A stretch of 64,000 nucleotides of DNA from Acidobacteriota bacterium (GTDB lineage Bacteria; Acidobacteriota; UBA890; WLXD01), in assembly GCA_963666055.2 (NCBI GenBank), contig CAXWPH010000015.1, positions 1,280,001-1,344,000 on the forward strand. Reading direction: 5' to 3'. This document shows, one piece after another, positions 4,953 through 55,623 of this stretch. The position numbers and the translations under genes are program-made. The notes beneath the pieces were generated by a model that was not told the origin of the DNA, did no database searches, and saw only the letters and a list, made by a program, of their open reading frames with translations. How positions within the stretch are numbered: position 1 is the stretch's first letter; every line of letters begins with the position of its first letter.

Positions 4953-7634
4953 ATGAACTCGACGCAACTTGTTGCCTGCGCCCTCGTCTTCCTGATGGTC
5001 GCCGTGAGCCCGGCACCCGGGGCTGCATGGGCGCAGACGCACGTGCCCGCTCCCGAAGAGATCCTTGGATTCCACGTCGGCGATGATTTCAAGCTCGCAT
5101 CCTACGACGAGTCGATCGCCTATTTCCGGGCATTGGACGCCGCCAGCGATCGCTTGGAGCTGCGCGAGATCGGCCGTACTTCCGAGGGTCGATCCTGGTT
5201 CATCGCGTTGATCTCATCGCCGGAGAACCTTGCGAACGCCGAGCACTATCGCGAGATTTCCAAGCGCCTCGCCAACCCCGTCGGGCTGTCCGACGAGGAG
5301 GCGCGGGCGCTGGCGCAGGAGGGCAAGGTGATCGTCACGGTCGATGGGGGCCTACACGCGAGCGAGAGCGCTCACGCCCAGCTCACCATCCAGTTCGCAT
5401 ACGACCTGATCACAGAAAAGGAGGGATCGATCGCGCGCGAAATCCTCGACGAGGTCATTCTCATTCTCTATCCCTCGATCAACCCTGACGGCCAGAACAT
5501 GGTCGTCGACTGGTACCGCCAGAACCTCGGGACCCCCTACGAGACCGCCCCCATGCCGCGCCTGTACCAGAAGTACATCGGCCATGACAACAACCGCGAC
5601 GCCTACGGCCTGAACATGATCGAGTCGCGGACTGTGGTGCGGCTCCTGCGTCATTGGGAGCCGCAGGTTCTCTATACCCACCACATGACTGCGACGTTCC
5701 CCTCGACCATGTGGCTACCGCCTAACGGCGAGCCGATCAGCCCATACGTGCACCCCTTGATGACCCGGACGCTCAACCTGCTGGGGACTGCGGCCGCCCA
5801 AGCGATGGACGAGAAGGGCCTGCCCGGCGCCGAGCACATGGGTGAGTTTTACGACTTCTGGTACCCCGGCTACATCGACTACGGCAACTTCTTCCACAAC
5901 GTCGTCAGCATGTTCAGCGAGGTGGGGCTGCATACCTCACCTTCGCCGCGCTTCTACAGTGTGCGCGACTTCCCGCCGGAGCACCAAGCACTGCTACCCA
6001 AGTCGCTTCACGCGTCGCTGTGGCGCGGTGGTTGGTGGCGACAACGCGACTCGATCAACATCATGTTGGCGACCACCTGGTCGACGCTCGACATGAGCGC
6101 GAAGTTCCGCGAGCGATTCTTGTACAACCGCTACGTGGCCGGGCGCGACACCATCCGACACTACTCGGAGAGCCCGCCGTACGCGTACTTCATACCGGTG
6201 CAACAGCGTGATCCGGTGGCGGCAGTCGAGTTGTTGCGGCGGCTAGCTTTCCACGACGTTGCGGTGTACCGCCTGAATCAGGACGCGGTGGTCGACGGTC
6301 AGACCCACCCCGCGGGCACCTGGGTCATACCCATGGATCGCGCCAACGCCAACTTCGCGGCCGTACTCTTGGACGTACAGCGCTATCCGGATCTCCGCCA
6401 ATACCCCGGAGGTCCGCCCGATCTTCCGTACGACATCGCGGGCTGGACGCTGCCCTATCAGATGGACGTCCGCACGGTCGCAACTGGCTCGCCGCTCGAC
6501 GATTCGGTCCAGGCGACGATGGCGCCGGTGCTCGGTGAGACCGTAGACTGGAGCGTCGAGGGGGACGCAGAGCCCTTCGACAGCGTCCCGGGCGCTGGCT
6601 TCAACACCCATCCGATCGCCGCCGCCATCACGCCTCCGGCAGGCTCGGTAACCGGGAACGGTCCGGCGCTGCTGCTCGATCCGGCGCAGAACAACAGCTT
6701 CCGTGCCGTGAATCGCGCCTGGGGCTCGGGGGCTCAGGTACGTTTCCGGGCCGCTTCCTCCGGCGGCGCAGGGAGTCGATACATCGTCTCCGGGCTCTCC
6801 GCCGCGCAGGTCGACTCGATGGTCAAGGAGTTGGCTCTCCAAGCGGAACGTGGGCCCGCCGCCGGTGAGACCGTGCGGCGGCCCCGCATCGGGCTTTATC
6901 GGCCGTGGCAACCGAGCATGGACGAGGGATGGACGCGTTGGCTGCTCGAGCAGTACGGCTTTGGATTCGAGACCGTCTACAACGCCGACATGCGGGCAGG
7001 CGACCTGCGCGGGCGCTACGACGTCATCGTGCTCGTAGATCTGTCGCCACAACAGATCATCGAAGGCGCCCCGGTCGGCAGCGTTCCGCCGCCCTACGCC
7101 GGAGGCATCGGCCGCGAGGGGACCCGCGCCCTCGACGCTTTCGTACGCGACGGAGGGACTCTCGTCTGCCTCAACCGCAGCAGCCGCTTCGCCATCGATG
7201 AGCTCCATTTGCCAGTTCGCGACGTCGTCAGGGAACTCGAATCAACGGACTTCTTCATCAGTGGCTCGGTCGTCGAGGCGACCGTCGACACCGCCCACCC
7301 GATCATGGGCGGCATGCCGGAGCGCGCCAAGATCATGTTCATGAACAGCCCGGTGTTCACGACTGAAGAAGGCTTTCATGGCAGCGTGCTCGCCAAGTAC
7401 GCGACGGCCGGATCGCCGCTGCTGTCCGGCTTCCTGCTCGGCGAGGAGTACATGCTAGGCTACGCCGCCGCGATCGACGTCGCGCACGGCGACGGCCACG
7501 TGGTCCTGCTAGGCTTCCGGCCGCAGTGGCGCGCCCAACCCTTCGGTACGTTCCGCGTCCTATTCAACGCCTCGCTATACACTCGGGAGATAGCGGCCAC
7601 CAGCATACCGACCCCCGACTTCTGGACCTATTGA
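4953..7634 (+). CDS. M14-family zinc carboxypeptidase-like exported protein with C-terminal class-I glutamine amidotransferase-like domain
   Basis: GLHASE, NPDG, HDNNRD and DEGWTRWLLEQY motifs; signal peptide; stop TGA is the first 3 nt of the IS3-like end. Confidence 0.85.
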   Translation: MNSTQLVACALVFLMVAVSPAPGAAWAQTHVPAPEEILGFHVGDDFKLASYDESIAYFRALDAASDRLELREIGRTSEGRSWFIALISSPENLANAEHYREISKRLANPVGLSDEEARALAQEGKVIVTVDGGLHASESAHAQLTIQFAYDLITEKEGSIAREILDEVILILYPSINPDGQNMVVDWYRQNLGTPYETAPMPRLYQKYIGHDNNRDAYGLNMIESRTVVRLLRHWEPQVLYTHHMTATFPSTMWLPPNGEPISPYVHPLMTRTLNLLGTAAAQAMDEKGLPGAEHMGEFYDFWYPGYIDYGNFFHNVVSMFSEVGLHTSPSPRFYSVRDFPPEHQALLPKSLHASLWRGGWWRQRDSINIMLATTWSTLDMSAKFRERFLYNRYVAGRDTIRHYSESPPYAYFIPVQQRDPVAAVELLRRLAFHDVAVYRLNQDAVVDGQTHPAGTWVIPMDRANANFAAVLLDVQRYPDLRQYPGGPPDLPYDIAGWTLPYQMDVRTVATGSPLDDSVQATMAPVLGETVDWSVEGDAEPFDSVPGAGFNTHPIAAAITPPAGSVTGNGPALLLDPAQNNSFRAVNRAWGSGAQVRFRAASSGGAGSRYIVSGLSAAQVDSMVKELALQAERGPAAGETVRRPRIGLYRPWQPSMDEGWTRWLLEQYGFGFETVYNADMRAGDLRGRYDVIVLVDLSPQQIIEGAPVGSVPPPYAGGIGREGTRALDAFVRDGGTLVCLNRSSRFAIDELHLPVRDVVRELESTDFFISGSVVEATVDTAHPIMGGMPERAKIMFMNSPVFTTEEGFHGSVLAKYATAGSPLLSGFLLGEEYMLGYAAAIDVAHGDGHVVLLGFRPQWRAQPFGTFRVLFNASLYTREIAATSIPTPDFWTY

Positions 7635-7689
7635 CCTGCCCCAAGTGTTTGGGCTAATGCGTAACTCATTAAATCGGTGCTGACAAGAG
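7632..7689 (+). mobile_element. IS3-like terminal remnant, copy 1 of 4
   Basis: TGACCTGCCCCAAG...GTAACTCAT..AATCGGTGC recurs at 16963, 43074 and, inverted, at 55623. Confidence 0.65.
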
Positions 7690-7820
7690 ATGGTCGCAGC
7701 CGACGGTCAGCGTTTCGTGATGTTCCCCGCCCCAACCGGAGCCAGTCCCGCAGCGGCCACGTGACGCTGGTCACCAACTGGTTCGACGAGCTGAAGCGGC
7801 TCGTGCCGACGGATCAGTAG
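7690..7820 (+). pseudogene. 3' remnant of a kinase-PD40 receptor gene
   Basis: Encodes VAADGQRFVMF and, in another frame, GHVTLVTNWFDELKRLVPTDQ*, matching the C-termini at 8478 and 31198. Confidence 0.8.
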
Positions 7821-8105
7821 CTGACTGGGCCGAGTCCCGCAGGCACTTGTGCTGTTGCCGCGCTACCTCTTCCCGGTGCTCCACCCCAGCCACTTCAGCG
7901 GCCTCCAGGAGCAACGCCAGCTGCTGCTCTGGGCGAGGTGGGCGATCTGTGTGGTCGGGGTGAGCCTCATGCGCGGGAGCTTACTCCCTTGCGGCCAAGT
8001 TACGTCCGCGTTGGTGGGACGCTACCTGATGCCGTTTTCTCCAACTCGGTGACGCGCGTTCCCATGAGAATTGCCGGGATCATATGTTGCGCCACCTACC
8101 CCTAG

Positions 8106-8259
8106 ACAGGTGTGGTGTCCATCAACAAGCCGAAAGCGGCGAAATCCGGCTACAAACGGCAAACTGCTGTCGCTAACCAATGCGCCGTAAGTTGTTGAAA
8201 ACACTGGAACACAAAGGCGCGCCCGGGAGGATTCGAACCTCCGACCTGCGGATTAGAAG
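8106..8259 (-). repeat. att-like arm plus 3' half of tRNA-Arg (8216-8259), ending at the anticodon loop
   Basis: Near-copy of 34348-34512 lacking one 11-bp unit; IHF-like site at 8188-8200; tRNA identity stops right after TTAGAAG. Confidence 0.9.
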
Positions 8260-8404
8260 GTCAGAGACCTGGACTCGTAGTTCTTTGTAGCTAGTTCGTT
8301 TTCTTTGTAGTGATCGGCAGTTGCATCCTCACTCGTACAACTAGATACAAGTACAAACAAACAGAATCCGATCTTGTTTGTAGGGTTTTTGGCAAGAAAT
8401 AGGC
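8260..8404 (+). repeat. Left 145-bp inverted arm of the tRNA-splitting element
   Basis: Gap-free match to the reverse complement of 39740-39884 (about 99/145 by hand count); TTGTA/TACAA motifs at 10-bp phasing; GGCAAGAAATAGGC shared. Confidence 0.85.
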
Positions 8405-8477
8405 AAGTTTCCATACAACCGAGTCCGAAGTAACTGCCACACTCCGATCAGCCGCGGCTCGTGATGGTGGCAGCTAG

Positions 8478-10730
8478 CTATGGATCCGTCGGCACGAGCC
8501 GGTTCAGCTCGTCGAACCAGTTGAGCACGACCTGCAGCTCGGTTCCCTGGGGCACCGCGCCCTCGCTCATGACAAACTCTTGTCCGTCAGGAGTGATGTC
8601 GAAGAGATGTGATCTCGGTGCAATATGGACATTAAATCGGCCTCTTGTCTCAAACAGCCGGCGGGGCTTCCCAGGGGAGAAGCCCGAGTCATAGCTGACA
8701 TCAACGACCATCATCGCCCACACCCCACTGGTCATGTAGTAGATCGCACGCCCATCCCTGGACCACATGGGCCAACCCCCGATCACGGTCGAGATCTGTG
8801 TCCTTTCGCCCGGCCCTGGATAGGGCTGCACATAAGTGTGGAACTCGCCTGACTCATTCGAGTGGTAGACGATCCACTTCCCATCCGGCGAGAACATGGC
8901 GCCGCTCTCATGAGCCGCGGAGACGGCTAGATCCAGCGGCAGCCCTCCCTCTTGTAGAGGCAGGAGCCGGATGTTCTCTCCGGTCTCTGGATGGTTCTCT
9001 TGGTAAGCGAGGACCTCACCGTCAGCCGACCACGACTGCGGGTATATGGGGTATTCGGCCTCCAGGAGTTGTCGGGCAGTCCCGCTGCCATCAGAGGGCC
9101 GTATGACGATTCTCCAGCGATCACCGTCGTGGGAACTGTGCGCGATGGATCGCCCATTCGGCGACCAGACGGGAGCGACGTTGATCCCTGAGAACGGGCG
9201 TTCGGAAAACGTTCCACGTTCCATATAACCGATCCAAATCTGACGCTCTCGACTGTCTCCGTGCTCACAGGCAATGGCCAGTTCTCGGCCGTTGGGTGAG
9301 AGTCTCGGGCCCGCACAATGGAGACCACTCGGAAGCGGCAACGACCGGCTCACGCCATCATGACTCACGGCGACGGCAACGCCCAAGCCGGAGATAACGC
9401 CCAACGACTTCACCAAGGGTTCGTAGTAGATGAAGGTGCCCATATCCGAAACATCGTAGTCCCACACCTCGTCGATGAGCCGGACCTCTTGTCCATAGGC
9501 TTCAAGGCTAGAGAGGTCGAAGGGCCGCGCCCAAAGGGCCAAATTATGATAGCTCTTCCAATAGACGAGATGTCCGGTCGGCACGTATCGGGCGCCATAG
9601 GCTGATTCCAACACAGTCTTTTGTTCGCCTGTCTCGAGCGAGACCACAGCCGCGCCCAGGACGACACCGGTCTCAGGCCGAAAAACGCTAAAGAGCACCG
9701 TCTTGCCGTCAGGCAGTATCGACGCCCGGCGATGGTCACCGCCTTTGCTCGTGTCTATGGTGGTCAGCCTTCTCGGGCTTCCCCCTTCAGCAGACACGAT
9801 GTGAAGACCCGACGAGTCGCCGTAGACAATGCCGCGTGCTCCCCACGCCTGCACACTAGCCTCGAAAGTAACGAAGATCCCAAGCGAGACTGGAGTGCTC
9901 CCATCCAGTGCGACCTTCTTGAGTTGGGTCCCCTTCGCAAATGCCACCCAGTTGCCGTCGGGAGAAAACGCAAAACGACGACCCGGGACCCCAGGTATCG
10001 GACTGAATTCGCGCTGATCCAAGGTCCTGATAACAAGCTGCGGTCTGAGTCCTCCTGAGCGGTACGCCACTCGCGTACCATCGCGCGAGATGTTGGGCCA
10101 GTCGGAGTAGGGCAAGTCCGACGGGAGGGACATCGTCAGGTGAACGGTTGATTGCGCAATCCGATCGTTGCTCGATTGGCGCCACAGGGCAGTGGTGACA
10201 GCGGCGACAGCGGCCAGCAGGACGACAAGGGTCCATGCGATCGGGAGCTGGTGGTGCCGAGCGATGGCCACGACCTGAGCGATGACTCCGGAGATCTGCG
10301 AGGCAAGCTGTGGAACTGCGCTGTCCACGGCCGTCTCCGGCTGGACCGTTGATATCGGAGCAATAAATCGGTACCCACGCCGGTGCACAGTCTGGATGTA
10401 CGTAGGCCGATGCGGATCGTCTCCGAGCTCCTGCCGGAGAATCTTGATCGCCTCGCTGAGGGAGGTTTCGGCCACGACGGTATCGGGCCAAACCGCATCG
10501 ATTAGCTCCTGTTTGCCGACCACCTCCTCCGGTTGCTGAAGCAGGTACTCCAGGAGCGCGAGAACGCGGGGCGGGAGTGAAGTTGCCCGCCCGTTCATGT
10601 ACAAGAGGCGATTGTCTGGCTCAAAGCGGTAGCACCCGAAGGCCAGGGCCCCTGAAGACTTACGGACGCGCCCCGCCCCTGATCCGCCGGGGCGATCTCG
10701 ACTTGACGCGTTGGCCGGCCGGTCCTTCAT
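8478..10730 (-). CDS. OmpR/CadC-type winged-helix regulator fused to a TM helix and PD40 beta-propellers
   Basis: N-terminal wHTH (ELIDAVWPD...LRQELGDD...YIQTVHRRGYRF), TM segment, SPDG repeats, C-terminus VVLNWFDELNRLVPTDP. Confidence 0.9.
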   Translation of the reverse strand: MKDRPANASSRDRPGGSGAGRVRKSSGALAFGCYRFEPDNRLLYMNGRATSLPPRVLALLEYLLQQPEEVVGKQELIDAVWPDTVVAETSLSEAIKILRQELGDDPHRPTYIQTVHRRGYRFIAPISTVQPETAVDSAVPQLASQISGVIAQVVAIARHHQLPIAWTLVVLLAAVAAVTTALWRQSSNDRIAQSTVHLTMSLPSDLPYSDWPNISRDGTRVAYRSGGLRPQLVIRTLDQREFSPIPGVPGRRFAFSPDGNWVAFAKGTQLKKVALDGSTPVSLGIFVTFEASVQAWGARGIVYGDSSGLHIVSAEGGSPRRLTTIDTSKGGDHRRASILPDGKTVLFSVFRPETGVVLGAAVVSLETGEQKTVLESAYGARYVPTGHLVYWKSYHNLALWARPFDLSSLEAYGQEVRLIDEVWDYDVSDMGTFIYYEPLVKSLGVISGLGVAVAVSHDGVSRSLPLPSGLHCAGPRLSPNGRELAIACEHGDSRERQIWIGYMERGTFSERPFSGINVAPVWSPNGRSIAHSSHDGDRWRIVIRPSDGSGTARQLLEAEYPIYPQSWSADGEVLAYQENHPETGENIRLLPLQEGGLPLDLAVSAAHESGAMFSPDGKWIVYHSNESGEFHTYVQPYPGPGERTQISTVIGGWPMWSRDGRAIYYMTSGVWAMMVVDVSYDSGFSPGKPRRLFETRGRFNVHIAPRSHLFDITPDGQEFVMSEGAVPQGTELQVVLNWFDELNRLVPTDP

Positions 10731-14350: not shown

Positions 14351-14469
14351 GCAGGGCATGCGCGTCGCGGCTACTTGCCTACCGTCTAGTCCGTCGCAGC
14401 CTATCGCAGGCCCGCAGTTTAGCAAGAAGTCGGCGCGTCTCTAGAAAAGCCGATGGCGATAGTACCGAC

Positions 14470-14582
14470 GTCAGTTCACAGGCGCGAAACCGATTCTCAA
14501 CGCCTCGGATAGCCTGGAGGACACATCATCCGGCCCAGCTCGCCGCTCGCGCGACCGCGGCATCTCCATTGTGTGGACCGAC
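14470..14582. repeat. 113-bp element with terminal inverted repeats (MITE-like), copy 1
   Basis: Colinear near-copy of 38819-38931; right TIR degenerate here. Confidence 0.75.
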
Positions 14583-14587
14583 GTATA

Positions 14588-14631
14588 GCGTGTGGTTTTG
14601 CGCCCCCTGGACCTTCGCATGGCTTGACGAT
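14588..14631 (+). repeat. Truncated copy of the kinase promoter region
   Basis: GTGGTTTTGCGCCCCCTGGACCTTCGCATGGCTTGACGAT matches about 22056-22099; cut at the -10 box. Confidence 0.7.
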
Positions 14632-14692
14632 CTGTGCGTTAGATCATCACCTGTCTCAGAAGAAGCCGCTATTGGGATTCTCCAAGCGTCTC

Positions 14693-16921
14693 CTAGTCGT
14701 CTATCCCGAAGGCCAGTAGCACATTGCCCGGTGTATTGCCGAAAAGCCCGTACCCGGATCCCAGGTACATCATCCCATCGACGATCGTTGGGGAGGTGGC
14801 ACCAATTGCGCCGCCGAAGGCCGGCACTTCGTTAACGGCTTCGTAGGTTCGTTTCGTCGTGTATTCCCAGAGAATCTCGCCGTCCGCCTTTGAATATGCA
14901 TGGAGTGTCCCTTGGGACGAGCCGGTGATTACCGCGCCGGGCACTGCGGTTGCCGCCGCCGTATAACCCGAGGAGCAAGCGTTCCAACCCGACAGGTTGC
15001 AGTCCTCCAGCCCCGGCAGTTCCCTGTACCAGACGCGCTCGCCCGTCGTCACCCGCAACGCCGCAACGGCCCCGCTCGCGTCCCGGTAGTTCAGTGGACG
15101 ATAGAAGAGCTCGCCGTCTGACGCCCCGCCCCAACCCGCGCCGTTAGGAGCAAGCCGGTCGCCGGCCTGGGCCACCCAGAGAACTGCCCCGTCGTTGTCA
15201 GGATCCAAAGCCGTGATGCGGCCGCTCTCCTGTACGCCCAGCAGCACTCTGCGACCGTTCGGCAGGTCGAGCAGAATCGCCTGGTTGACGTCGTCGCCCG
15301 GGCCCTGAATGTAGCCAGGGCAATTGACCAGACGCTCGGGACCTCGCCCGCAGCCACCTTCGTCTCGATCCGAGGACGCCGGAAGGAGGTTGGTCATCCA
15401 CAACCGTCGGCCGGTATCCATGTCGATGGCCAGTATCGAGCCGCAGGCGCCGCCGTCGAAGGACACGTTGCCGACACCGAAGTGCTCAGTGATGTTGCAG
15501 TTGCCGGTGGGCGCATAGATGGCGCGCCGTTTTTCGTCGATCGTGAGCGAGCTCCAGATGCCGGCGCCGGCTGGTCCGAACAGCGGCGTGCCGGCCGAGT
15601 TCGTCTTGTTGAGTGGCCGAGGCCGTTCTGGAAAAGAGTACGTTTGCCAGACCTTCTCCCCGGTCTTCACGTCGACGGCCACGACGCTACCCTGGAACGT
15701 GCAGCACTCGTACTCGACATAGGAACCAGGCTGCTCTTCCCACGACGCGACCGGCACATACAGGCGCTCGCCTGAGGAATCGAGCCTGACTGCGGATGTG
15801 ATCTTCGCCTGTGGATGATCGTCGGCGCGCAGGGTCCACATCTCTTGCCCCGTCTCGGCGTTGACGCCGTACACGACCCCGCTCATGTCGCCGAAATACG
15901 CGCCATAGCGGACCCCCGGTACATCATCGACCGGGCCGACCTTGACGGCGCCCCGGACCGCCGTCTGCGCGCGGTACGACCAGTGAACGCAGCCCGTCTT
16001 GGCGTCGAGCGCATACACGAAGAAGTTATCGCTCGTCAGGAACAGTGCACCGCCCACCACGCTGGGTTGCGACCAGTTGGCGACCGAGGCATCCGGGATG
16101 GCGAAAACCCACTTCAGCTTCAGCCGCGGGAGGTCCTCCGCGGTGATGCCGCCGACCGCCTCCGACGCGAACCGATGCACACCGAGCTCGGGATCCCAAC
16201 CGTTCCAACTCGGCTGGTTCTCCCAGTTGTCCAGGTTTATGGACTCTGCACACTGGTTCGGCATGGCCGCCGCCTCGCGGTGGGCAACGCCGCCGAACGG
16301 CTTGCCAGTCACGAGCTCGATGACGGCACGCTTGTACTCTTCGTTGCCGAAGATCCGGAAGCGATCACTCTCGTCATGTGCCGCGATCGGCCGGTTCAAC
16401 ACTGCCAGGAGCTCGTCGGCTTCCATCTGCTGAATATCGAACCGTGAGGGCATGTTGGCGGCAGCGGTCCCGCCCGAAACGGGGCGACCGACAGGTGAAT
16501 TGTCGTGGCAGACCGCACACCCGTTTTCGAACACACCGACCATCCTTGCAGGATAGACGGTGCGGTCGACCGAGCCACCGAGAGGCTTGCCGGTCACCAG
16601 TTCTGCCATTGCCCGTAGCTCGTCGTCCCGGAACTCGGATGTGAACTCCACCATGGGCCCTTCCATCAGGGCAATGAGCACCTGCTCTGGCTCCATCTGT
16701 CGAAGCGCCTCCCGAGTGGGTGCCAGGATCTCGTCGCTCTGATTGTCATGACAGTCGGCACAGATCGCTTCATACGTCGCCACCATGCTGGCGGCAGAGG
16801 CCATGGCCTTCGGGCCCGGCACATCTTGAGCCTGGACGGGCGAAGTAAGGAGCTGCGTCGTCAATGCGCACACAGCCACGATCACCGTCACCGCGCTCAT
16901 GGTTAGTACTCGTCTCAGCAT
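14693..16921 (-). CDS. PQQ-dependent dehydrogenase (polyvinyl-alcohol dehydrogenase-like) with two c-type heme motifs
   Basis: CADCH and CAVCH; LKLKWVFA, ECCTFQGS and GAGIWSS motifs; signal peptide; RBS GGAGG. Confidence 0.85.
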   Translation of the reverse strand: MLRRVLTMSAVTVIVAVCALTTQLLTSPVQAQDVPGPKAMASAASMVATYEAICADCHDNQSDEILAPTREALRQMEPEQVLIALMEGPMVEFTSEFRDDELRAMAELVTGKPLGGSVDRTVYPARMVGVFENGCAVCHDNSPVGRPVSGGTAAANMPSRFDIQQMEADELLAVLNRPIAAHDESDRFRIFGNEEYKRAVIELVTGKPFGGVAHREAAAMPNQCAESINLDNWENQPSWNGWDPELGVHRFASEAVGGITAEDLPRLKLKWVFAIPDASVANWSQPSVVGGALFLTSDNFFVYALDAKTGCVHWSYRAQTAVRGAVKVGPVDDVPGVRYGAYFGDMSGVVYGVNAETGQEMWTLRADDHPQAKITSAVRLDSSGERLYVPVASWEEQPGSYVEYECCTFQGSVVAVDVKTGEKVWQTYSFPERPRPLNKTNSAGTPLFGPAGAGIWSSLTIDEKRRAIYAPTGNCNITEHFGVGNVSFDGGACGSILAIDMDTGRRLWMTNLLPASSDRDEGGCGRGPERLVNCPGYIQGPGDDVNQAILLDLPNGRRVLLGVQESGRITALDPDNDGAVLWVAQAGDRLAPNGAGWGGASDGELFYRPLNYRDASGAVAALRVTTGERVWYRELPGLEDCNLSGWNACSSGYTAAATAVPGAVITGSSQGTLHAYSKADGEILWEYTTKRTYEAVNEVPAFGGAIGATSPTIVDGMMYLGSGYGLFGNTPGNVLLAFGIDD

Positions 16922-16962
16922 TGGATTCCTCCAGTCCAGACATTCTCGGTTTTGAAGAACAT

Positions 16963-17018
16963 TGACCTGCCCCAAGTGTTGAGGCTACTTCGTAACTCAT
17001 AGAATCGGTGCTGGCAAC
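16963..17018 (+). mobile_element. IS3-like terminal remnant, copy 2
   Basis: Matches 7632-7689. Confidence 0.65.
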
Positions 17019-22037: not shown

Positions 22038-22057
22038 GCAGGTTGTATACAACCTGC
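22038..22057. promoter_or_regulatory. Perfect 20-bp palindrome GCAGGTTGTATACAACCTGC, GntR/FadR-type operator candidate
   Basis: TTGTATACAA core, 41 bp upstream of the HAD start. Confidence 0.6.
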
Positions 22058-22075
22058 GGGTGGTTTCGTGCCCCG

Positions 22076-22245
22076 TGGACCTTCGCATGTCCTGACGATA
22101 GGCTTCAAGCGCTCATCCACCCTTCTGCGGTAGCGCCATGGAACCCGGCATCAAACTAGGCCCCTACGAGATCACCGAGCAGCTCGGCGCTGGCGGCATG
22201 GGCGAAGTGTCTCGAGTACGCAATACGACGCTGGATCCTGATGTC
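22076..22245 (+). repeat. Kinase promoter plus first 36 kinase codons (5' shell)
   Basis: TGGACC-N17-TAGGCT, then MEPGIKLGPYEITEQLGAGGMGEV. Confidence 0.9.
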
Positions 22246-23820
22246 ACTAGCGAGAGAAGGAGTCGGCTGAATCAAACCGTCAGTCGAACGATTGCCGGCA
22301 TCGCTTGCGTGGCGGTAGTGGCGTGCAGCAGCGGCGGAAATCCCTACGCCGACAAGTTCACCGACGTTGATCCGGCCTGGGCGGTCACTGCCGACGAGGG
22401 CTACGAATGGGCGCTGGTCAAAGATGCCAACCTGCCGGCGATGACCGGTAGCCCGGAGTGGAACAACTACGTCGGGTTCCTGGAGGACAAGCTCCGGGAA
22501 TACGGCGTAGTCGACATGCACCGCAACAGCTGGACGTACGATCGCTGGTCCACGACGAAGGACAACAGTGGCTGGTCGTTGGTGTCAGACGGGGCGCCGG
22601 TACGCGTGGCTCATTACGCCATGAACTCCGGCAGCACCGGCCCGGAGGGGATCACGGCGGAGATGATCTACTACGACCACGATAATCCGCCCGACTCCAT
22701 CGAGGACAAGATCGTGGTGTTTCCGACGCGGCCGCACCCGGAACCTCCCTACGACGACTACTACATCAAGAACTTCACCTTCAACGACTACGAGTGGCGC
22801 GCCAATGACGACACGTACTGGGAATTGTTCCAGTTCGTGCCACCGGAGTTCAGCATCACCTTCGATATCTGGTGGCAGCTGCGGCAGAGTTTATGGCGCA
22901 TCGCAGTAGAGGGAGGCGCAGCGGGTCACGTCACCGTCTACGACATGGCCTTCGGGCGTAGCGAAGGACTGGTGGCCCGACCGATACCTCCTCTGTATGA
23001 GTTGCCGGGACTATCTCTGAGCCGTGAGGACGGGGCCAAGGTGATCGCCGATGCCAAAGCGGGCAAGACCGCCACGCTGCGGCTGGAGGCAACCGTCGAG
23101 GCATCGGAGGCCTACCAGACGATCTCGTACCTGCCGGGTCGCGACTACGGCACCCCGGGGGACGAGCAGATCCTGTTGATCAACCACACAGATGGCCCTT
23201 CGATCACGCAGGACAACGGTGCGCTGGGTCTGCTGGCGATCGTCAAGTACTTCTCCAACATCCCGCAGGAGCACCGGCCGCGAACGCTCACCGTCTTCCT
23301 CGACAACCGGCACTACTATCCGGGGCAGGAGCGCGCGGCGCACGAGGTGAGCTGGCTGGAGCGCTATCCCAAGGCCAAGGACCCCCTGGTGGGCATCATT
23401 CAGACCGAGCACATGGGCGAGAACGACTACCGCGAGGCGGACGGCGTGGTCGAGCCGGTGGGACTGGCCGAGCAGTCGTACCTCTGGTCGCGCAACAATC
23501 AGGTGCTCATCGACGCCGCGGTTGCCGCCGCCCAAGTGCATGGCTGGGAGCGCGTGCAAGTGGTGGTACCCGAGCGGCCGGGAATCAACGGCGGCCTGCA
23601 ACAGGTGTGGTGGGGGGTTGGATCCCGGGCTCTGCGCGGCTGCCCGCAGTGCCTCGATCTGCCCGGCTACGGCCTCGGCGGGTTTCTTGGTCTGTATTGG
23701 ACGACGGCGAGTGGGATCGAGCGCTGGAACAAGGACCTGTTCGAGGATCAGGCGCACACGATGACGCAGCTGACCGGTGTGTTGATGACTGCTGATCTCG
23801 ACGAGATTCGACCCGAATAG
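22138..23820 (+). CDS. M28-like peptidase/PA-domain lipoprotein fused in frame to a kinase N-terminal stub
   Basis: Lipobox VVAC, HTDGP...QDNG and EHMG motifs; the first 36 aa are kinase-derived. Confidence 0.7.
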   Translation: MEPGIKLGPYEITEQLGAGGMGEVSRVRNTTLDPDVTSERRSRLNQTVSRTIAGIACVAVVACSSGGNPYADKFTDVDPAWAVTADEGYEWALVKDANLPAMTGSPEWNNYVGFLEDKLREYGVVDMHRNSWTYDRWSTTKDNSGWSLVSDGAPVRVAHYAMNSGSTGPEGITAEMIYYDHDNPPDSIEDKIVVFPTRPHPEPPYDDYYIKNFTFNDYEWRANDDTYWELFQFVPPEFSITFDIWWQLRQSLWRIAVEGGAAGHVTVYDMAFGRSEGLVARPIPPLYELPGLSLSREDGAKVIADAKAGKTATLRLEATVEASEAYQTISYLPGRDYGTPGDEQILLINHTDGPSITQDNGALGLLAIVKYFSNIPQEHRPRTLTVFLDNRHYYPGQERAAHEVSWLERYPKAKDPLVGIIQTEHMGENDYREADGVVEPVGLAEQSYLWSRNNQVLIDAAVAAAQVHGWERVQVVVPERPGINGGLQQVWWGVGSRALRGCPQCLDLPGYGLGGFLGLYWTTASGIERWNKDLFEDQAHTMTQLTGVLMTADLDEIRPE

Positions 23821-34678: not shown

Positions 34679-34752
34679 TGGATCCCCAGCCGTCGCGGCG
34701 ATAGGCTTCAGGCGCCCACCCACTCCTCTGTGGTAGCGCCATGGGACCCAGC
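34679..34752 (+). promoter_or_regulatory. Kinase promoter and leader retained upstream of the flavoprotein gene
   Basis: TGGATC-N17-TAGGCT...GGTAGCGCCATGGGACCC. Confidence 0.75.
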
Positions 34753-38545: not shown

Positions 38546-38818
38546 GTTCAGTTCCTCCGCAATGCGTCAGCGGGAATGTCCCAGATAGACACCGCCGACG
38601 CAGCTACTCCCGTCGGTGAGGTGAAGATGCCTGGATGCAATCACAGGTGCACTGTCTTCTCCAGGGATCCTCTACCCGATCGCCGGCCGGCGGCCGGCAT
38701 CAGCGGTATGCAGAACTGCTAATTGCAGGCGGTGGACTGCGCCCCGCCGCGCAGCTCGGCCCCTTTCTGACGGATCCGTCGGCACGGCCTCCGGCTGCCC
38801 CCTCCCGACTGGACCGTC

Positions 38819-38931
38819 GTCAGTTCACAGGCGCGAAACTGATTCTCTGCGCCTCGGATAGCCGGGAGGACAGATCATCCGGCCCAGCTCGCCGCTCGCG
38901 CGCCCGCGGCATCTCCGCTGTGTGAACTGAC
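38819..38931. repeat. 113-bp MITE-like element, copy 2, with perfect 11-bp TIR
   Basis: GTCAGTTCACA...TGTGAACTGAC. Confidence 0.8.
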
Positions 38932-38936
38932 CTATT

Positions 38937-38981
38937 GTGGGTAGTTTCGCGCACCGTGGACCGTCGCAAGCTCTGGCGATA
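38937..38981 (+). repeat. Truncated copy of the kinase promoter region
   Basis: GGGTAGTTTCGCGCACCGTGGACCGTCGCAAGCTCTGGCGATA aligns to about 22058-22100. Confidence 0.7.
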
Positions 38982-39087
38982 CGGGTACTGGGGACGGAAA
39001 GTGAAGTCGTATCGCTGTGCGGCGATCTGCTGGGGCGTCGCGTTCGTTGCGTTCCTTATCGGAGGCGGTGCCGGCCGACTCAGCAGG

Positions 39088-39333
39088 TTACAAGTCCAGG
39101 TCCCCGAGCTTCGTGCCCGTGCCTTGGGCAAGGCTACGTCGAGCCTTCTCGATCCGCGCCAAGAAGCGCGGATCATTCTCCAGCTGATAATCGAACCAGT
39201 CTTCCTCGGTCCCGAACCCGACCAATACCCCCGCGGGGCGGCCATGGCGTGTGATCACGACCTCTTCGTGCTCGGCAAGCCGCAGCACGCGCGATAGGTC
39301 GTCCTTCACTTTGGAAAGCGCGATCTTCTTCAT
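39088..39333 (-). CDS. Phd/YefM-family antitoxin
   Basis: VKDDLSRVL...EEVVITRHGRPAGVL; start overlaps the toxin stop. Confidence 0.9.
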   Translation of the reverse strand: MKKIALSKVKDDLSRVLRLAEHEEVVITRHGRPAGVLVGFGTEEDWFDYQLENDPRFLARIEKARRSLAQGTGTKLGDLDL

Positions 39334-39623
39334 TGGGCTTCTCCGAGTCTGCTGAGCCAGTCAGCAGCATCACGCTTGGCAACTACCGCAAGCACGCGTA
39401 CTTGCTGGTCGACAACGTCATAGAACACCTGCACTTCGTCGATCCTCAGTCTGAACTGCGGCTTCCGCAACCCGCGAAGCCGTTTGATCCGACTCTTGCT
39501 CTGCTTCCGTGGCTCGTGGCGCAGGTGAGTCTCTATTGCGTCCCGTACCCGCGCTCGAACATTCGCCTTGAGCTGTCCGAGGTCATCGACAGCCTCCTGG
39601 GCCAGAATGATCTCGTGTCTCAT
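39330..39623 (-). CDS. RelE/ParE-family toxin, upstream of its antitoxin
   Basis: IKRLRG...FRLRIDEVQVFYDV; palindrome ATTCTAGCTAGAAT at 39633-39646 in the promoter. Confidence 0.85.
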   Translation of the reverse strand: MRHEIILAQEAVDDLGQLKANVRARVRDAIETHLRHEPRKQSKSRIKRLRGLRKPQFRLRIDEVQVFYDVVDQQVRVLAVVAKRDAADWLSRLGEAQ

Positions 39624-39739
39624 TCTGGCTATATTCTAGCTAGAATTTTCGAGTAACGGTAGTAGGCATTCTCGCTGCCGGTGTGTCTCGAGCGTTTACG
39701 AACCGCGGTAGGATCCCGACACTCCCATCGGCGCACTTC

Positions 39740-39884
39740 GCCTATTTCTTGCCTAACTCTGTGCAAAGAGCGTCGGATTCTGGTTGTTTCTCTTTGTATC
39801 TAATTGTACGCGTGCAGTCGGAACCCACTGCGAATACAAAGGAAACGAGCGAGATACAACCAGATACAAACGGGCGGCTTTGAC
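39740..39884 (-). repeat. Right 145-bp inverted arm
   Basis: Inverted partner of 8260-8404. Confidence 0.85.
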
Positions 39885-43073: not shown

Positions 43074-43157
43074 TGACCTGCCCCCAAGTCTTGGCCCACT
43101 TCGTAACTCATAAAATCGGTGCGGGCAAGAGCTTGTTGGAGCCGGCGGAGCGGAGCG
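43074..43157 (+). mobile_element. IS3-like terminal remnant, copy 3, abutting the kinase promoter (43173-43201)
   Basis: Matches 7632 and 16963 and, over about 84 bp, the reverse of 55540-55623. Confidence 0.65.
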
Positions 43158-43234
43158 TCCTGGCTTCTCCCGTAGACCCCCGCGAGCCTCAGCGATAGGC
43201 TTCACGCGCTCACCCACCCTGCCTCGGGAGCGCC

Positions 43235-45880
43235 ATGGAACCCGGCACCAAGCTCGGCCATTACGAGATCCTCTCCCCGCTCGGTGCAGGCGGCATGGGA
43301 GAGGTGTACCGCGCACGCGACACCAACCTTGATCGTGATGTCGCCATCAAGGTGCTGCCGGAAGACTTCGCCGACGACGCAGCGCGGCTCGCTCGATTCG
43401 AGCGCGAGGCGAAGCTCCTTGCCTCCTTGAACCATCCCAACATCGCGACGATCCACGGCTTCGACGAGTCGGACGGTGTGCGCTTCATCGCCATGGAGCT
43501 GGTCGAGGGTCAGAGCCTCGACCAGCGGATCGCTGCAACCAGTCGCATCGAGATCGATGAGGCACTGGAGATCGCTCGCCGGATCGCGCTGGCGCTCGAA
43601 GCCGCCCACGAAGCGGGCGTCATCCACCGGGACTTGAAGCCTGCCAACGTGCAGGTTGCACCCGATGGCACGGTCAAGGTACTCGACTTCGGGTTGGCCA
43701 AAGCCTACGAAGCCGGCGGCAATGCGCCGTCGCCCGACCTGAGCCAGTCACCCACCATGATGGCCGCCACGGGCACCGGCGTGATCATGGGAACGGCTGC
43801 CTACATGAGCCCCGAGCAGGCGCGCGGCAAGCCACTCGATCGGCGCGCCGATGTGTGGTCGTTTGCCTACGTGCTGTACGAGATGCTCAGCGGTAGCAAG
43901 GCCTTCGATGGGGACACCATGTCCGACGTGCTCGCCGCCATTCTCAAGGAGGAGCCCGACTGGTCGCGCCTGCCCGCCGATACACCGCCCGCCTTGCGCC
44001 GACTGCTCGAACGTTGCTTGCGCAAGGACCCGGCGCGGCGCCTGCGCGACATCGGTGACGTGCGGGTGGAGATGGAAGACGCCAGCTCGGAGGCGTTGTC
44101 GTCGCCGGAAAGCGCTCCGGCGCCGCTCCCATCCAGCGCCGCTGCACGGCTGGCGCCGTGGGTCGTAGCGGCGGTCGCCATGATGGTGGCCGCTTGGGTC
44201 GTGTTTGGCGCGCGCCCCGGCCCCGACACAACCGCTGCCCCGATGCAGCGGTTCAGCATCATCGTGCCCGAAGATCAGCTACTGCCGGTGCGGAACTTGA
44301 TGTTGGCGGTATCGCCATCCGGCACCGAGATCGTTTATTCGGCGGAGCGCGACGGTGCATCGATGTTGTACCGACGACGCATCGACAGCTTCACTGCTGA
44401 GCCGATAGACGGCACAGAAGGCGCAGACAAGCCGACCTTTGCCCCCGACGGTGAATCCGTGGCTTTTCGCCAGGGCAACGCCGTGCGCGCGGTGTCGATG
44501 GATGGCGGGGTCCTCCGCAGCCTGTGCGCACCATGCTTAGCGGAGTTCGGATTGGCGTGGGGGCCGGACGGTACGGTCATCGCGGCGCCGGTGTGGGCGG
44601 CGCCGCTCGAGATCATCGCCGGCCCGCGCGATCCTGGCCCGATCACCGAGCTCGACCCGACGCGCGGCGATCTCTCTCACCTGTGGCCGCAATTCTTGCC
44701 CGGTGGCGAGAGCGTTCTGTTTACCATCTGGGCTGGCACAACCACCTACGGCGCTGTCCTTTCCCTCGACGACGGTGCCGTTCGAACCGTCGGCGAAGGC
44801 GGCTCTAACTACCGCTACGTGGAGCCGGGATACCTGGTGTCGGGTCGAGAGGGTGCGCTGGTTGCCGAGGCCTTTGACCTCGCGTCGCTGCAATCCACCG
44901 GTTCGCAGATCGCCGTCGCCGACGGTGTCATGATGTCGGTAGACGCCTTCGCGTCGTACGGCGCATCGTCTTCCGGGATGCTCGCCTTCCGGCGCGGCAG
45001 TTGGCTGACCCGCATCGTGTGGGTGGATCGAGACGACGGAGAAACGACCGAGGCGTGGCCCCGGCCGGGCAGGTTCAGCTCGGTGGCGGTGTCGCGCGAC
45101 GACCGTTACATCGTCGGCGACGTAACAACAAACAGCAGTTCCTACGAAGTATGGTTGCTTGACCTCGGAGCCGGTACCCCTCAACTGCTCAGCAGCGGGA
45201 CCGACGATACGAAACCAGTCTTTTCCCCCGACGCCAGCACGGTAGCCTACACTTCCGTAACGGACGATGGTTACGCAATCCTCTCGGTCTCGGTAGAGGG
45301 ATCCCGGGAGCCTGAAGAGTTGATCCGCCGCAATGCCTTTATCGTTCCGAGCGACTGGTCAGCCGACGGCCGCTATATCACGTACTACGTCGAGGGTCCG
45401 GGAGGGGACGTTTGGCTGCTGCCCACGGATGGAAGCGAGCCGGTCCCCATCACCGACAGTGCCGCCGCCGAAAGTGACGGAACGATCTCACCGGAATCGA
45501 AGTGGATCGCCTTCGTCTCCGATCGTTCCGGGCGAAACGAGATCTGGGTCGATTCCATGGACGATCCTGGCCGCCCGCAGCAGATCACCTTCGAAGGTGG
45601 TCAGATGCCGCTCTGGAGCCCCTTGGGCAACGAGATTTTTCACCGCCGCGGCAGCGAGATCCGCGCGCAGCCGATAACCACCGAGCCGTCGTTCCGCCTG
45701 ACAGCCGATTACACATCGGTGGTCGACGATGCCCGACTGGTGGAGAACGGCCGGTACCACATATCGTCCGACGGCAAGCGTTTGCTCCTGGCGCGCTATG
45801 AGGACGCCGGCCTCGAAGACCACTACTTCAACGTCATCCCGGATCTGCGGGCGTTCTTGGAACGCCAGGGTGGCCAGTAG
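43235..45880 (+). CDS. Ser/Thr protein kinase with TM helix and PD40 propellers
   Basis: Hanks motifs present; subdomain IX reads DVWSFAY; promoter TAGACC-N17-TAGGCT. Confidence 0.95.
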   Translation: MEPGTKLGHYEILSPLGAGGMGEVYRARDTNLDRDVAIKVLPEDFADDAARLARFEREAKLLASLNHPNIATIHGFDESDGVRFIAMELVEGQSLDQRIAATSRIEIDEALEIARRIALALEAAHEAGVIHRDLKPANVQVAPDGTVKVLDFGLAKAYEAGGNAPSPDLSQSPTMMAATGTGVIMGTAAYMSPEQARGKPLDRRADVWSFAYVLYEMLSGSKAFDGDTMSDVLAAILKEEPDWSRLPADTPPALRRLLERCLRKDPARRLRDIGDVRVEMEDASSEALSSPESAPAPLPSSAAARLAPWVVAAVAMMVAAWVVFGARPGPDTTAAPMQRFSIIVPEDQLLPVRNLMLAVSPSGTEIVYSAERDGASMLYRRRIDSFTAEPIDGTEGADKPTFAPDGESVAFRQGNAVRAVSMDGGVLRSLCAPCLAEFGLAWGPDGTVIAAPVWAAPLEIIAGPRDPGPITELDPTRGDLSHLWPQFLPGGESVLFTIWAGTTTYGAVLSLDDGAVRTVGEGGSNYRYVEPGYLVSGREGALVAEAFDLASLQSTGSQIAVADGVMMSVDAFASYGASSSGMLAFRRGSWLTRIVWVDRDDGETTEAWPRPGRFSSVAVSRDDRYIVGDVTTNSSSYEVWLLDLGAGTPQLLSSGTDDTKPVFSPDASTVAYTSVTDDGYAILSVSVEGSREPEELIRRNAFIVPSDWSADGRYITYYVEGPGGDVWLLPTDGSEPVPITDSAAAESDGTISPESKWIAFVSDRSGRNEIWVDSMDDPGRPQQITFEGGQMPLWSPLGNEIFHRRGSEIRAQPITTEPSFRLTADYTSVVDDARLVENGRYHISSDGKRLLLARYEDAGLEDHYFNVIPDLRAFLERQGGQ

Positions 45881-46094: not shown

Positions 46095-46391
46095 ATGGGC
46101 ACACGTAAGGTCACCTACACCATTGACGCGGCGACGGTTGCTCGCCTCGAAGAAGCGGCTGAGCGACTGGGAAAGCCGAAGAGCCAGGTGGTTCGCGAGG
46201 CGATCAACGACTATGCCGAGCGCATCGGGCGGCTGAGCGAGGGCGAGCGGTTGCGCATGCTGAAGACCTTCGACGAGCTGGTCGGCAAGATCCCCGAGCG
46301 ACCGGTCCGCGAGGTGGATGACGAGCTCGTCGCGATCCGTGAATCGCGTCGCGTCGGCGGGCGGCGCTCCGGTGGTGGAAGCAAGCATTGA
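46095..46391 (+). CDS. CopG/RHH antitoxin (VapB-like)
   Basis: RKVTYTID...KSQVVREAI; overlaps the PIN gene. Confidence 0.85.
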   Translation: MGTRKVTYTIDAATVARLEEAAERLGKPKSQVVREAINDYAERIGRLSEGERLRMLKTFDELVGKIPERPVREVDDELVAIRESRRVGGRRSGGGSKH

Positions 46392-46774
46392 TCGCGCTGG
46401 ACACCTCCGTCCTCGTCGACGCGCTCACCGGGCCGCGACGCTCGGCTGGCGCTTTGCGACGGTCGATCGCGGCCGGCGAGCGGATCATGATCCCCTCGCT
46501 CGTGCTTTTCGAGTGGCTGCGGGGGCCACGGACGATCCCCGAGCTCGAGGCGCAAGAGGCGCTGTTCCCGCGACGGCAGGCAGCGGCCTTCGGTGAACGC
46601 GAGGCCGGGCTCGCGGCCGAGCTCTACGCGCAGGTAGCGCGTCCTCGCGGCCGAGAGATCGATCTCGCCATCGCCGCATGTGCTCTCGTGCAGGCTGCAG
46701 CGCTGTGGACCTTGAACCGCGCCGACTTCAGCGACTTGCCCGGACTCGAGCTCTACGAGCCGCCCGGATCCTGA
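46388..46774 (+). CDS. vapC: PIN-domain VapC toxin
   Basis: LDTSVLVD...E...DLAIAACA...TLNRADF. Confidence 0.9.
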   Translation: MIALDTSVLVDALTGPRRSAGALRRSIAAGERIMIPSLVLFEWLRGPRTIPELEAQEALFPRRQAAAFGEREAGLAAELYAQVARPRGREIDLAIAACALVQAAALWTLNRADFSDLPGLELYEPPGS

Positions 46775-50852: not shown

Positions 50853-50858
50853 TCGACG

Positions 50859-54405: not shown

Positions 54406-55422
54406 ATGAGTCGCCGCTGGGCGCTGTCGGCCCGTTGCGCCGCGGTCTTCGTTGCGCTGATCTTCGTTGCCCCGGTGCCTGGTGCCGTGCCGGCAATCAC
54501 TCAAGGAGTGCACCTCGAACAGGTCGGCTCGATTCCCGTGCCGGCGGCGCCGCGGGCCGGGTATCTGGCGAGCCAGGTGACGGCACGCGATGGCTACGCC
54601 TACATCTCGCTAGGCAAGGCCTTCACGATCTACGAGGTCTCGGATCCAGCCGCACCGCAGCGCCTGGGATCGTACGAGTTCCCCGACGAGATCTGGAGGT
54701 TCAGGATCACCGGCTCGCGCGCGTACGTCGGCGCCAACTTCTTCGGGCTCGGCATCCTCGACATCTCGGATCCGACGGCGCCGAGGCTCGTAGGCACGCA
54801 CGACACACTCGGTCAGGCCTCGATCGCGGCGGCCTTCGAAACCAAGGTCGTGATCATCGACCACATGGAAGGCCTGGTGATGGTCGACGTATCTGACGAG
54901 GCCGAGCCAGTGCTGGTCGGTTCTTACTACATTGACGGCTACGCTCGCGATGTCGTCACGTTCGGGTCGCTGGCGTTTGCGACGGAATCGCCCAGCGGAC
55001 TCTATGTGTTCGACCTCTCGAAGCCGGGTCCACCAGAGCCGGTCAGCATACTCCACGCTGCCGGCGCGCCGCGGGCTATCGAGGTGTCGTCCGCGGGTGG
55101 CGGGTCGACGCTCCTGTGCGGTGCCAGCGGCGGCAATCTCCAGGTGTACGACGTGTCGGATCCGCTGGCGCCGGTCAGGGCGGCGACGTTCGAGACGCCA
55201 GGTCGTGCCGAGCACGTGGCGCTCGATGGTGCGGTCGCCTACGTTGCCGATGGCGAGGCGGGGATTCAGATCGTGGATCTGTCAACGCCCACGGAGCCGA
55301 GACTGCTCGGCTCCTACGAATTGGCAAAGCGGGCGCACTATGTGTCCGTCGCCGGCTCACACGTCTTCGTCGTCGCGGGCGACGAGGAAGACGCGGAAGT
55401 GGTGATCCTGAGACGGTCCTGA
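54406..55422 (+). CDS. LVIVD-repeat exported protein
   Basis: Repeated AYV...GL.I.D.SDP..P units; stop lies inside an inverted kinase remnant. Confidence 0.85.
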   Translation: MSRRWALSARCAAVFVALIFVAPVPGAVPAITQGVHLEQVGSIPVPAAPRAGYLASQVTARDGYAYISLGKAFTIYEVSDPAAPQRLGSYEFPDEIWRFRITGSRAYVGANFFGLGILDISDPTAPRLVGTHDTLGQASIAAAFETKVVIIDHMEGLVMVDVSDEAEPVLVGSYYIDGYARDVVTFGSLAFATESPSGLYVFDLSKPGPPEPVSILHAAGAPRAIEVSSAGGGSTLLCGASGGNLQVYDVSDPLAPVRAATFETPGRAEHVALDGAVAYVADGEAGIQIVDLSTPTEPRLLGSYELAKRAHYVSVAGSHVFVVAGDEEDAEVVILRRS

Positions 55423-55538
55423 CGAGCGATTTCGAGTGCCACATCCACCGGGACGCGCCCGGAAGCCTTGATCCGCTCCGCCAGACTCTGACCCCCGACC
55501 AGCTCCATGGCGATGAAGCGCACGCCATGGAACCCGGC
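55419..55538 (-). pseudogene. Inverted internal kinase fragment overlapping a plus-strand kinase-start 16-mer
   Basis: GVRFIAMELVGGQSLAERIKASGRVPVDVALEIARQ on minus; CGCCATGGAACCCGGC at 55523-55538 on plus. Confidence 0.8.
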
Positions 55539-55539
55539 T

Positions 55540-55623
55540 GCGCTCCGCTCCGCCGGCCTCAACAACCCCTTGTCAGCACCGAGTTGCTGAGATAACACGT
55601 GGAACTAACGTTGGGTCAGGTCA
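55540..55623 (-). mobile_element. IS3-like terminal remnant, copy 4 (inverted, diverged)
   Basis: TGACCTGACCCAA...CGGTGCTGACAAG...GCCGGCGGAGCGGAGCG. Confidence 0.6.

Follow-up and report, generated by a model that had tools for sequence, protein, structure and literature searches.

The window analysed here is a stretch of 64,000 nucleotides from an Acidobacteriota bacterium of the lineage UBA890; WLXD01 (assembly GCA_963666055.2, contig CAXWPH010000015.1, positions 1,280,001 to 1,344,000 of the forward strand). It contains an intact tRNA-Arg(TCT) gene, displaced halves of that gene with attachment (att)-like arms, and a family of Ser/Thr kinase genes and gene stubs between which unrelated cargo genes lie (Table 1). 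An initial annotation, made from the letters alone, had described this locus as a cargo array in which copies of a kinase-bearing unit serve as landing pads for incoming genes. In the following, G000 is the genome containing the window and C15 its contig; G001 to G004 are relatives in the same genus, G004 being a sister species.

All tRNA-Arg halves at the locus are cut at the anticodon loop, CTTCTAA, the place of a crossover subsite. The 3' half lies downstream and the 5' halves upstream of the intact gene, all on the tRNA strand, which is the combination of tDNA and displaced fragment by which Islander recognizes islands; a further 5' half is present 13 kb to the right of the window. Including the intact gene, 5' halves number eight in G004, three each in G002 and G001, four in G000 (one on another contig) and one in G003. 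Attached to the halves are four families of arms (W, X, Y and Z), each with paired repeats, which are probably the arm-type and excisionase sites of tyrosine integrases. An arm with a tRNA 3' half occurs twice (8114-8259 and 34367-34512, 94% identical over 146 bp), as first annotated; missing from that annotation were a 5' half at 39885-39923 and another family of arms (8260-8408 and 39735-39884). The 24-bp box, likewise seen in two places and confirmed in both, is a portion of the Y arm. An accompanying 113-bp element, described at first as bearing terminal inverted repeats, is present in two copies that are 87% identical; perfect 11-bp repeats end only one of them, which folds better than shuffled sequences (z -2.3 versus +0.3). 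Box, element and arms are confined to this locus in G000. A miniature inverted-repeat transposable element (MITE) was considered for the 113-bp element and rejected, given its two copies in G000 and the fixed box and promoter flanks of all full copies. Rfam, searched for structured RNA, matched only the tRNA. Because the halves are cut at the anticodon loop and several arm families are present, the locus is, as judged from its sequence, an accretion island at tRNA-Arg(TCT) built by repeated att-type integration.

Table 1. Features of the tRNA-Arg(TCT) island (window positions).
Feature	Position	Strand	Remark
IS3-family right-end remnant joined to kinase C-terminal stub	7632..7700	+	same sequence terminates IS3 orfB in G004 and G000
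Kinase C-terminal stub, last ~37 codons, ...NWFDELKRLVPTDQ*	7710..7821	+	profile E 1.7e-19
tRNA-Arg 3' half (8216-8259, stops exactly at anticodon loop) and downstream W att-like arm	8114..8259	-	
X-family att-like arm	8260..8408	+	paired TTGGCAAG/TAGGCAAG repeats, 10-bp periodic repeats
Winged helix-turn-helix (Trans_reg_C) and PD40 propeller gene, ends in kinase-type C-terminal motif, adjoins X arm	8478..10598	-	
Y-element end without tRNA half: box 14410-14433, 113-bp element 14470-14582, promoter -35 part	14410..14635	+	
Cargo: cytochrome c and pyrroloquinoline quinone (PQQ) propeller protein	14693..16975	-	Y units of G004 and G001 hold it differently arranged
IS3 end remnant	16961..17017	+	
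Kinase promoter and first 36 codons, in-frame fusion to cargo	22056..22245	+	
Kinase-start/cargo fusion reading frame	22138..23820	+	stub-free cargo paralogues on C6 (80-82%); same 5' join in G001
Degenerate kinase end stub, abuts cargo stop codon	23807..23854	+	
Kinase promoter and 23-codon stub	25718..25865	+	
Promoter and kinase 1 (Pkinase-transmembrane-PD40), frameshifted	28760..31198	+	short-read contigs match window letters at shift
Intact kinase 2, in translational coupling with kinase 1	31198..33858	+	
Kinase end stub	33863..33907	+	
Kinase end stub, ~100 bp before W arm	34206..34244	+	
W arm 3' of intact tRNA-Arg	34340..34468	-	paired GGACACC repeats
tRNA-Arg(TCT), intact, the target	34469..34544	-	own 5' half and upstream DNA match Y-element end
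Y-family arm 5' of tRNA-Arg, contains 24-bp box	34545..34632	-	
Kinase promoter and 3-codon stub, then low-GC cargo: FAD oxidoreductase 34855-36771, sulfatase 36971-38545	34679..34751	+	
Second 113-bp element and promoter -35 part	38813..38982	+	
ParE/Phd toxin-antitoxin pair	39088..39623	-	
X-family arm after displaced tRNA-Arg 5' half	39735..39884	-	
Displaced tRNA-Arg 5' half (nt 1-39), stops at anticodon loop	39885..39923	-	
IS3 end remnant	43074..43148	+	
Promoter and intact kinase 3 (881 aa)	43153..45880	+	in G002 same upstream module precedes 109-aa cargo
RHH/PIN (vapBC-type) toxin-antitoxin pair	46095..46774	+	
Minus-strand relic: IS3 end 55624-55541 and internal kinase fragment, codons ~81-116, 55528-55419	55419..55624	-	

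The kinase proteins combine a Pkinase domain, a transmembrane segment and a PD40 propeller, a transmembrane-like segment being found in 29 of 29. Besides several stubs, the window holds two intact kinase genes (coding regions 31198-33858 and 43235-45880) and a frameshifted one (28844-31198). Promoter/start pieces, which include 28760-28901 and 43153-43292 as well as those at 22056, 25718 and 34679, match the kinase profile with E values of 1e-14 to 1e-41; pieces with the -35 part alone lie at 14586-14635 (86% identical to that at 22056) and 38942-38982 (E 0.0015). Further to the ends at 33863 and 34206, profile matches mark kinase ends at 7767-7821, 31141-31197 and, degenerate, at 23807 (E 5e-4). 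Upstream conservation begins at the -35 box, and the promoter was judged by eye to be of the sigma-70 type (TGGACC, 17 bp, TAGGCT). Its motif is nearly genus-specific: the genus's five genomes have 63, 33, 13, 11 and 4 matches, and one other genome of 26 has a single match. Self-comparison and profile scans recovered nearly all the pieces initially listed. The one at 55523 is a match of only 16 bp on the plus strand (E 0.25), within a relic of the minus strand; the pieces at 7632, 16961, 43074 and 55624 proved to be not kinase scaffold, being IS3 insertion-sequence ends (32 such ends in the genome). Unrelated cargo of differing base composition (G+C fraction 0.52-0.71) and two interspersed toxin-antitoxin pairs were found as had been described. 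Matches of the kinases to the PADLOC defence model PD-T4-6 span only residues ~5-320 and many kinase models match equally, as generic matches would. The nearest Atlas clusters of the kinase are commonest in Acidobacteriota, an indirect sign that the host probably belongs there.

A chimeric assembly across these repeats is extremely improbable. Over stub-cargo, box, insertion sequence and arm junctions the window agrees, with 0-1 differences, with contigs from four to five runs in two studies, one of them possibly the source sample (for example 11121-17016, 20859-22146, 24803-25759, 31764-34415, 34523-35023, 34998-39913 and 43801-47017), which refutes a chimera for the bridged junctions, and the same joins are present in G001, G002 and G004. 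On the other side, no contig among those listed spans the whole region, at the tRNA itself and the half at 39885 the pieces listed extend fewer than 31 letters to one side, and the assembly does contain duplications (a Lys-Glu-Thr tRNA cluster present twice, and a copy in inverted orientation on C8). Because short-read contigs bridge most junctions, we do not regard the window as a chimera. The duplications in G000 (C7/C10, C6/C13 and C8), which also include two selenocysteine tRNAs with the same integrase, may reflect strain mixing or real duplication.

The uneroded form is preserved in G004, where the array consists of seven exact tRNA 5' halves and the intact gene, plus one degenerate distal half, degenerate halves lying farthest from the tRNA; it forms seven integrase-less units of 2506-6355 bp. 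Arms match at both ends of the units, Y/Y in E3-E6 and X/X in E7-E8, and by sequence attL and attR appear to be retained in E3-E8. Box, 113-bp element, promoter and kinase start form a single contiguous element end here, and the order tRNA 5' half, box, 113-bp element, promoter, kinase occurs contiguously three times, which bears out the early view of the spacers as pieces of one unit. Unit E4 is composed of arm, promoter, intact 898-aa kinase and arm, and of nothing else. Unit E5 is bounded by the same ends and holds an amidohydrolase, preceded by a promoter/start stub and followed by an end stub; in E3 the promoter directly precedes a PQQ/cytochrome gene (counterpart of 14693-16975), and E7 and E8 retain end stubs. 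G003 carries an X arm followed by a promoter and two kinases, and G001 has Y units with cargo of the window. The same holds beyond tRNA-Arg: elements at Met att sites contain a kinase in G003 and G004 and a stub with cargo in G000, and one three-gene cargo is found both in a G004 Arg unit and in a G000 Met element (92-94%). As the initial annotation had anticipated, the cargo at the locus differs in the sister species and is reordered (gene order against G004, tau -0.13 for 17 genes, core -1.0; against G002 it is less reordered, -0.85).

No integrase or transfer genes were found in the window or in the G004 units by Pfam annotation and a PF00589 scan, a state in which they resemble cis-mobilizable elements (CIMEs), and no PF00589 match was obtained in G004 2.26-2.66 Mb or among annotated unit genes. 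In G002 an intact integrase ends next to the 5' half belonging to the intact tRNA, and G000 has a C-terminal remnant only (C15:1357144-1357683, 13 kb right of the window). Of 25 titled records that contain relatives of the integrase at the locus, 14 are from Acidobacteriota, again an indirect sign of the host. Integrase-bearing elements with kinase remnants exist (a Leu-CAA element); no autonomous Y or X parent was found, the search for autonomous Y elements giving none in five genomes and 0 matches in viral contigs. A metagenome search with the Y element gave seven matches, two with a distant integrase (32%); in one, a true Y end adjoins a fragment of the kinase. Separately, a Y-like arm follows a tRNA-Arg 5' half in a low-GC metagenome contig (L150), so this arm type may be widespread. 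The units would likely have been inserted successively by tyrosine integrases supplied from elsewhere. For this first step the sequence itself shows halves cut at the anticodon loop and, in G004, arms of the same family flanking every unit. Since the 5' half travels with its upstream DNA in most units, the latest arrival would adjoin the intact tRNA, an order suggested by the decay of distal copies.

Kinase pieces extend throughout the genome. Profile scans of G000 gave 125 promoter/start pieces (79 stubs, 37 full, 9 kinase domain only) and 98 ends (53 stubs), and 0 matches in the reversed genome; 181 of the 223 pieces fall into 20 clusters (random mean 50, maximum 80). Neighbouring pieces are co-oriented in 110 of 130 cases in G000 and in 69 of 74 in the relatives. 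A tRNA or half lies on the outer side of 17 of 223 pieces and on the inner side of one (shifted control mean 4.4, maximum 12); in the relatives, whose stretches were chosen around such motifs, the figures are 18 of 147 and one (control 2.5, maximum 8). Beside the pieces are halves of tmRNA, Met, Leu, Thr, Arg-TCG and Arg-TCT; for all of these except Leu and Thr, kinase ends directly adjoin the arm that runs into the half. As paralogues the kinases have diverged, the median identity of their kinase domains being 51%, and 17 stub-to-end brackets enclose cargo in G000. Local tandem amplification at tRNA-Arg, the origin first proposed, finds no support in view of att-type integration, the divergence of the paralogues, the ~20 stub clusters genome-wide and the several tRNA specificities. 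A genome-wide scatter of pieces lacking order had been named as fatal to the proposal; the pieces are genome-wide, and a strong order bias persists among them.

Could these patterns be ordinary island decay? The kinases would then be an abundant expanded family, the stubs passive deletion relics, the link to att sites a matter of abundance, and the promoters kept to drive neighbouring genes. The kinase expansion is indeed family-wide, all of 11 genomes having between 10 and 67 Pkinase matches each, and it is reported for Solibacter (PMC3174227); most stubs, moreover, have no att site. Decay by itself is nevertheless improbable, given the fixed polarity of the pieces to tRNA halves (35 outer versus 2 inner), the existence of att-bounded units with a kinase only, and the co-orientation of stubs in clusters whose cargo is not co-oriented (the majority strand holds 153 of 298 non-kinase genes). 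Promoter capture was rejected as a cause of the polarity, since the gene after a promoter stub is co-oriented in 41 of 56 cases (73%), no higher than the background of 69%.

Turning to the way in which cargo is joined, 67 of the 79 stubs could be mapped; 60 of the 67 end at most 160 nt from the ATG, at 58 different positions overall. A fixed crossover or capture site in the kinase was rejected because the stub ends are so scattered. Bracketed cargo often has stub-free paralogues elsewhere, the homology stopping at the gene edges, and among 382 duplicated blocks other than kinases, 35 have an end close to a kinase piece. The gene at 22138 shares its 5' join with G001 and not its 3' join, which suggests, at the level of sequence, that joining is stepwise. 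Reading frames of ~840 aa in which the first ~20 kinase codons are in frame with an unrelated protein, as at 22138, also occur at C10:8.3-10.8 kb and C15:414.9-417.4 kb of G000. Other observations concern recombination between kinases. Synonymous identity is 0.59 and 0.63 at the gene ends and 0.41 in the middle; two of eight pairs with propeller identity of at least 70% have kinase domains only 49% identical, as mosaics; and G000 and G002 hold units with hybrid Y/X ends, such as kinase-to-kinase deletion would yield.

Active landing pads would use the promoter and stop ends of the kinase as homology handles at which cassettes replace the kinase body by double crossover, giving an integron-like platform. 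Replacement of kinase bodies is indeed visible in E4 versus E5, in the window at 22138-23854 and in the 17 brackets. The homogenized gene ends and the mosaic kinases agree with such a platform, as does the window module at 41504-43210, which precedes a kinase in G000 and, in G002, a cargo of 109 aa that in G000 lies behind another stub. Flanks are frequently swapped: of upstream contexts seen twice, 12 of 16 differ downstream, and of stub-cargo joins seen twice, 14 of 16 differ upstream. Adjacency is also broken at 16 of 22 stub-bearing spacers versus 53 of 150 others (p 0.002), an enrichment that is not significant at matched spacer length. Against a dedicated reaction of this kind stand the non-homologous, scattered first joins, the stepwise events at 22138, and the finding of no orthologous locus with identical outer flanks and a clean two-end exchange of kinase for cargo. 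Landing pads in this active sense are unlikely. Only a little more probable is the receptor kinase of this genus as a universal socket, carried by integrase-less circles of many att specificities, which would exchange cargo and att ends by homologous recombination through the promoter and stop ends of the kinase.

The reading we prefer, with a probability of about 0.65, is an eroded stack of small, mostly integrase-less units bounded by tRNA-Arg halves, whose default payload is likely a receptor Ser/Thr kinase left as stubs after replacement. The kinase frame is likely a reusable carrier for acquired genes. After integration, a second step would lead from an att-bounded kinase-only unit to sister units with the same ends and cargo between kinase stubs. 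Illegitimate recombination or deletion may have brought in the cargo, often as two distinct events, because joins are scattered, IS3 ends lie nearby and Ku is present (in five of five genomes, compatible with end-joining capture and no evidence for it). Finally, co-oriented kinase copies could recombine with one another. Internal att junctions would thereby be lost, units with hybrid ends formed and cargo shifted from one att family to another, and this would account for the long clusters of one orientation in which no att site is left.

Several results weigh against this preferred reading. No tRNA half is nearby for 206 of the 223 kinase pieces in G000, and paired repeats, looked for behind kinase ends with a generic test, did not discriminate (23 of 71 versus 16 of 71 in a control window). 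The units of the window are eroded, with hybrid or partial ends. No integrase cognate to the Y or X arms was found, the G002 integrase has no relative in G004 at E<=1e-20, and no excised circle or empty site was present among the joints listed from contig data; the joints listed lie mostly within kinase or tRNA repeats and were not used. For spacers of at least 150 bp, adjacency is broken in 15 of 21 with stubs versus 25 of 45, and of the 14 swapped joins only four have an upstream partner that also precedes another downstream gene. Related genomes and paralogue pairs are, in addition, not independent. Accretion and the kinase frame are well supported. With the length-matched breakpoint contrast lost and no att site near most pieces, a role of the kinase as a recombination hinge is likely but comes second to these, and a dedicated landing-pad reaction is plausible and unproven.

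With integrons and superintegrons the present locus has in common that it is a polar array of gene-sized cargo with toxin-antitoxin pairs and shuffled order. Unlike them, it lacks intI and attC cores, as the initial annotation had stated, its cargo is in both orientations and its bounds are tRNA halves. The intI model (TIGR02249) had no match at the locus, and none of 34 genes was followed within 200 bp by an RYYYAAC...GTTRRRY pair (chance expectation 0.2; a strict pattern, with no covariance model). Elsewhere, G000 has a broken piece of integron integrase on C10 (149 bits, cut-off 265) and G002 one above the cut-off on another contig; the positions, unlinked to the locus, are G002 C8:1214363-1215181 and, partial or broken, G000 C10:50422-50736 and G004 C2:473897-474514.

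The system is a variant of CIME-like and Dehalococcoides-type tandem islands. In Dehalococcoides, as far as the account goes, 15 tandem ssrA islands have no integration module, and cargo and backbone histories are discordant (McMurdie 2011, PMC3146451). Several islands stacked at one tDNA with target fragments as bounds are common to both; the present units differ in having mostly the tRNA 5' half, a size of 2.5-6 kb, several arm families on both sides of the tRNA, and a shared kinase frame in place of the shared integration module described there. CIMEs are presented, in the relevant part of a review, as decayed integrative and conjugative or integrative and mobilizable elements (Guedon 2017, PMC5704250). 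Kept att ends without integrase or transfer genes, displacement by later integrations and chimeric internal att sites are similar; here, in contrast to CIMEs as described there, many units have one compact architecture and default gene across att specificities, their mobility being putative. Islander islands likewise combine a tDNA, a displaced fragment and an anticodon-loop crossover; in the described set, 159 of 3919 carry a 5' fragment, four tandems have three or more, and an integrase is required (Hudson 2015, PMC4383910). That integrase is lacking in the window and the G004 units and intact in one G002 unit, and the method rejects the seven 5'-type units of G004. Tycheposons and Prochlorococcus islands share the tRNA seed, the pushing of older elements outward by newer ones, and scattered partial tRNAs and integrase remnants; unlike the present units they carry an integrase and often replication modules, and no shared default cargo frame figures in the portion of the text concerned (Hackl, bioRxiv 10.1101/2020.12.28.424599). 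Neither an integrase nor a replication/packaging module was seen in the Pfam annotation of the window and G004 units. Kinases and tRNA are unmentioned in a review of acidobacterial mobile elements (PMC3469429), and open-access literature text, supplements aside, yielded no kinase-framed or integrase-less system of gene capture. What is unusual here is the long integrase-less 5'-type arrays and the one default gene that frames cargo across att families.

Some further observations concern the locus and its genome. A 23-bp internal piece of tRNA-Arg lies at window 1465-1487 in the opposite orientation, and at C5:65608-65685 of G000 a 'tRNA-Pyl' called by ARAGORN is a tRNA-Arg(TCT) 5' half adjoining a tRNA-Met 3' half, a non-cognate att junction. 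Many 3' halves of tRNA-Leu(CAG) and tRNA-Met are found remote from tRNA genes, within other islands (G000 C2, C5, C7, C10, C14 and C15). The segment at 17210-18039 (830 bp, 98.6% to G002, closer than neighbouring cargo) opens with part of the 113-bp element. An FAD-oxidoreductase gene at 19577-21252 is split, with ~300 bp deleted relative to an intact G002 copy. A perfect 26-bp palindrome at 50859-50884, between two genes, is missing at the corresponding place in G004. Finally, a short repeat at 52452-52545, 61498-61561 and 48326-48350 has ~390 matches genome-wide; it is MITE-like, often at CTAG beside stop codons, and polymorphic between G000 and G002.

Integrase-requiring island finders reject integrase-less 5'-type arrays of this sort, and the att junctions together with a candidate integrase make the model directly testable. 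The series from kinase-only units through promoter-captured cargo to cargo between both stubs offers a traceable record of gene acquisition by non-autonomous elements, a step that is usually erased. If the kinase did act as a socket, integron-like shuffling would draw on host recombination, tRNA att sites and a single family of paralogues and would need no cassette recombinase of its own. For the Acidobacteriota, the findings suggest a route by which the large Ser/Thr kinase families may have expanded and their sensor domains diversified, as default passengers of small tRNA-targeted elements.

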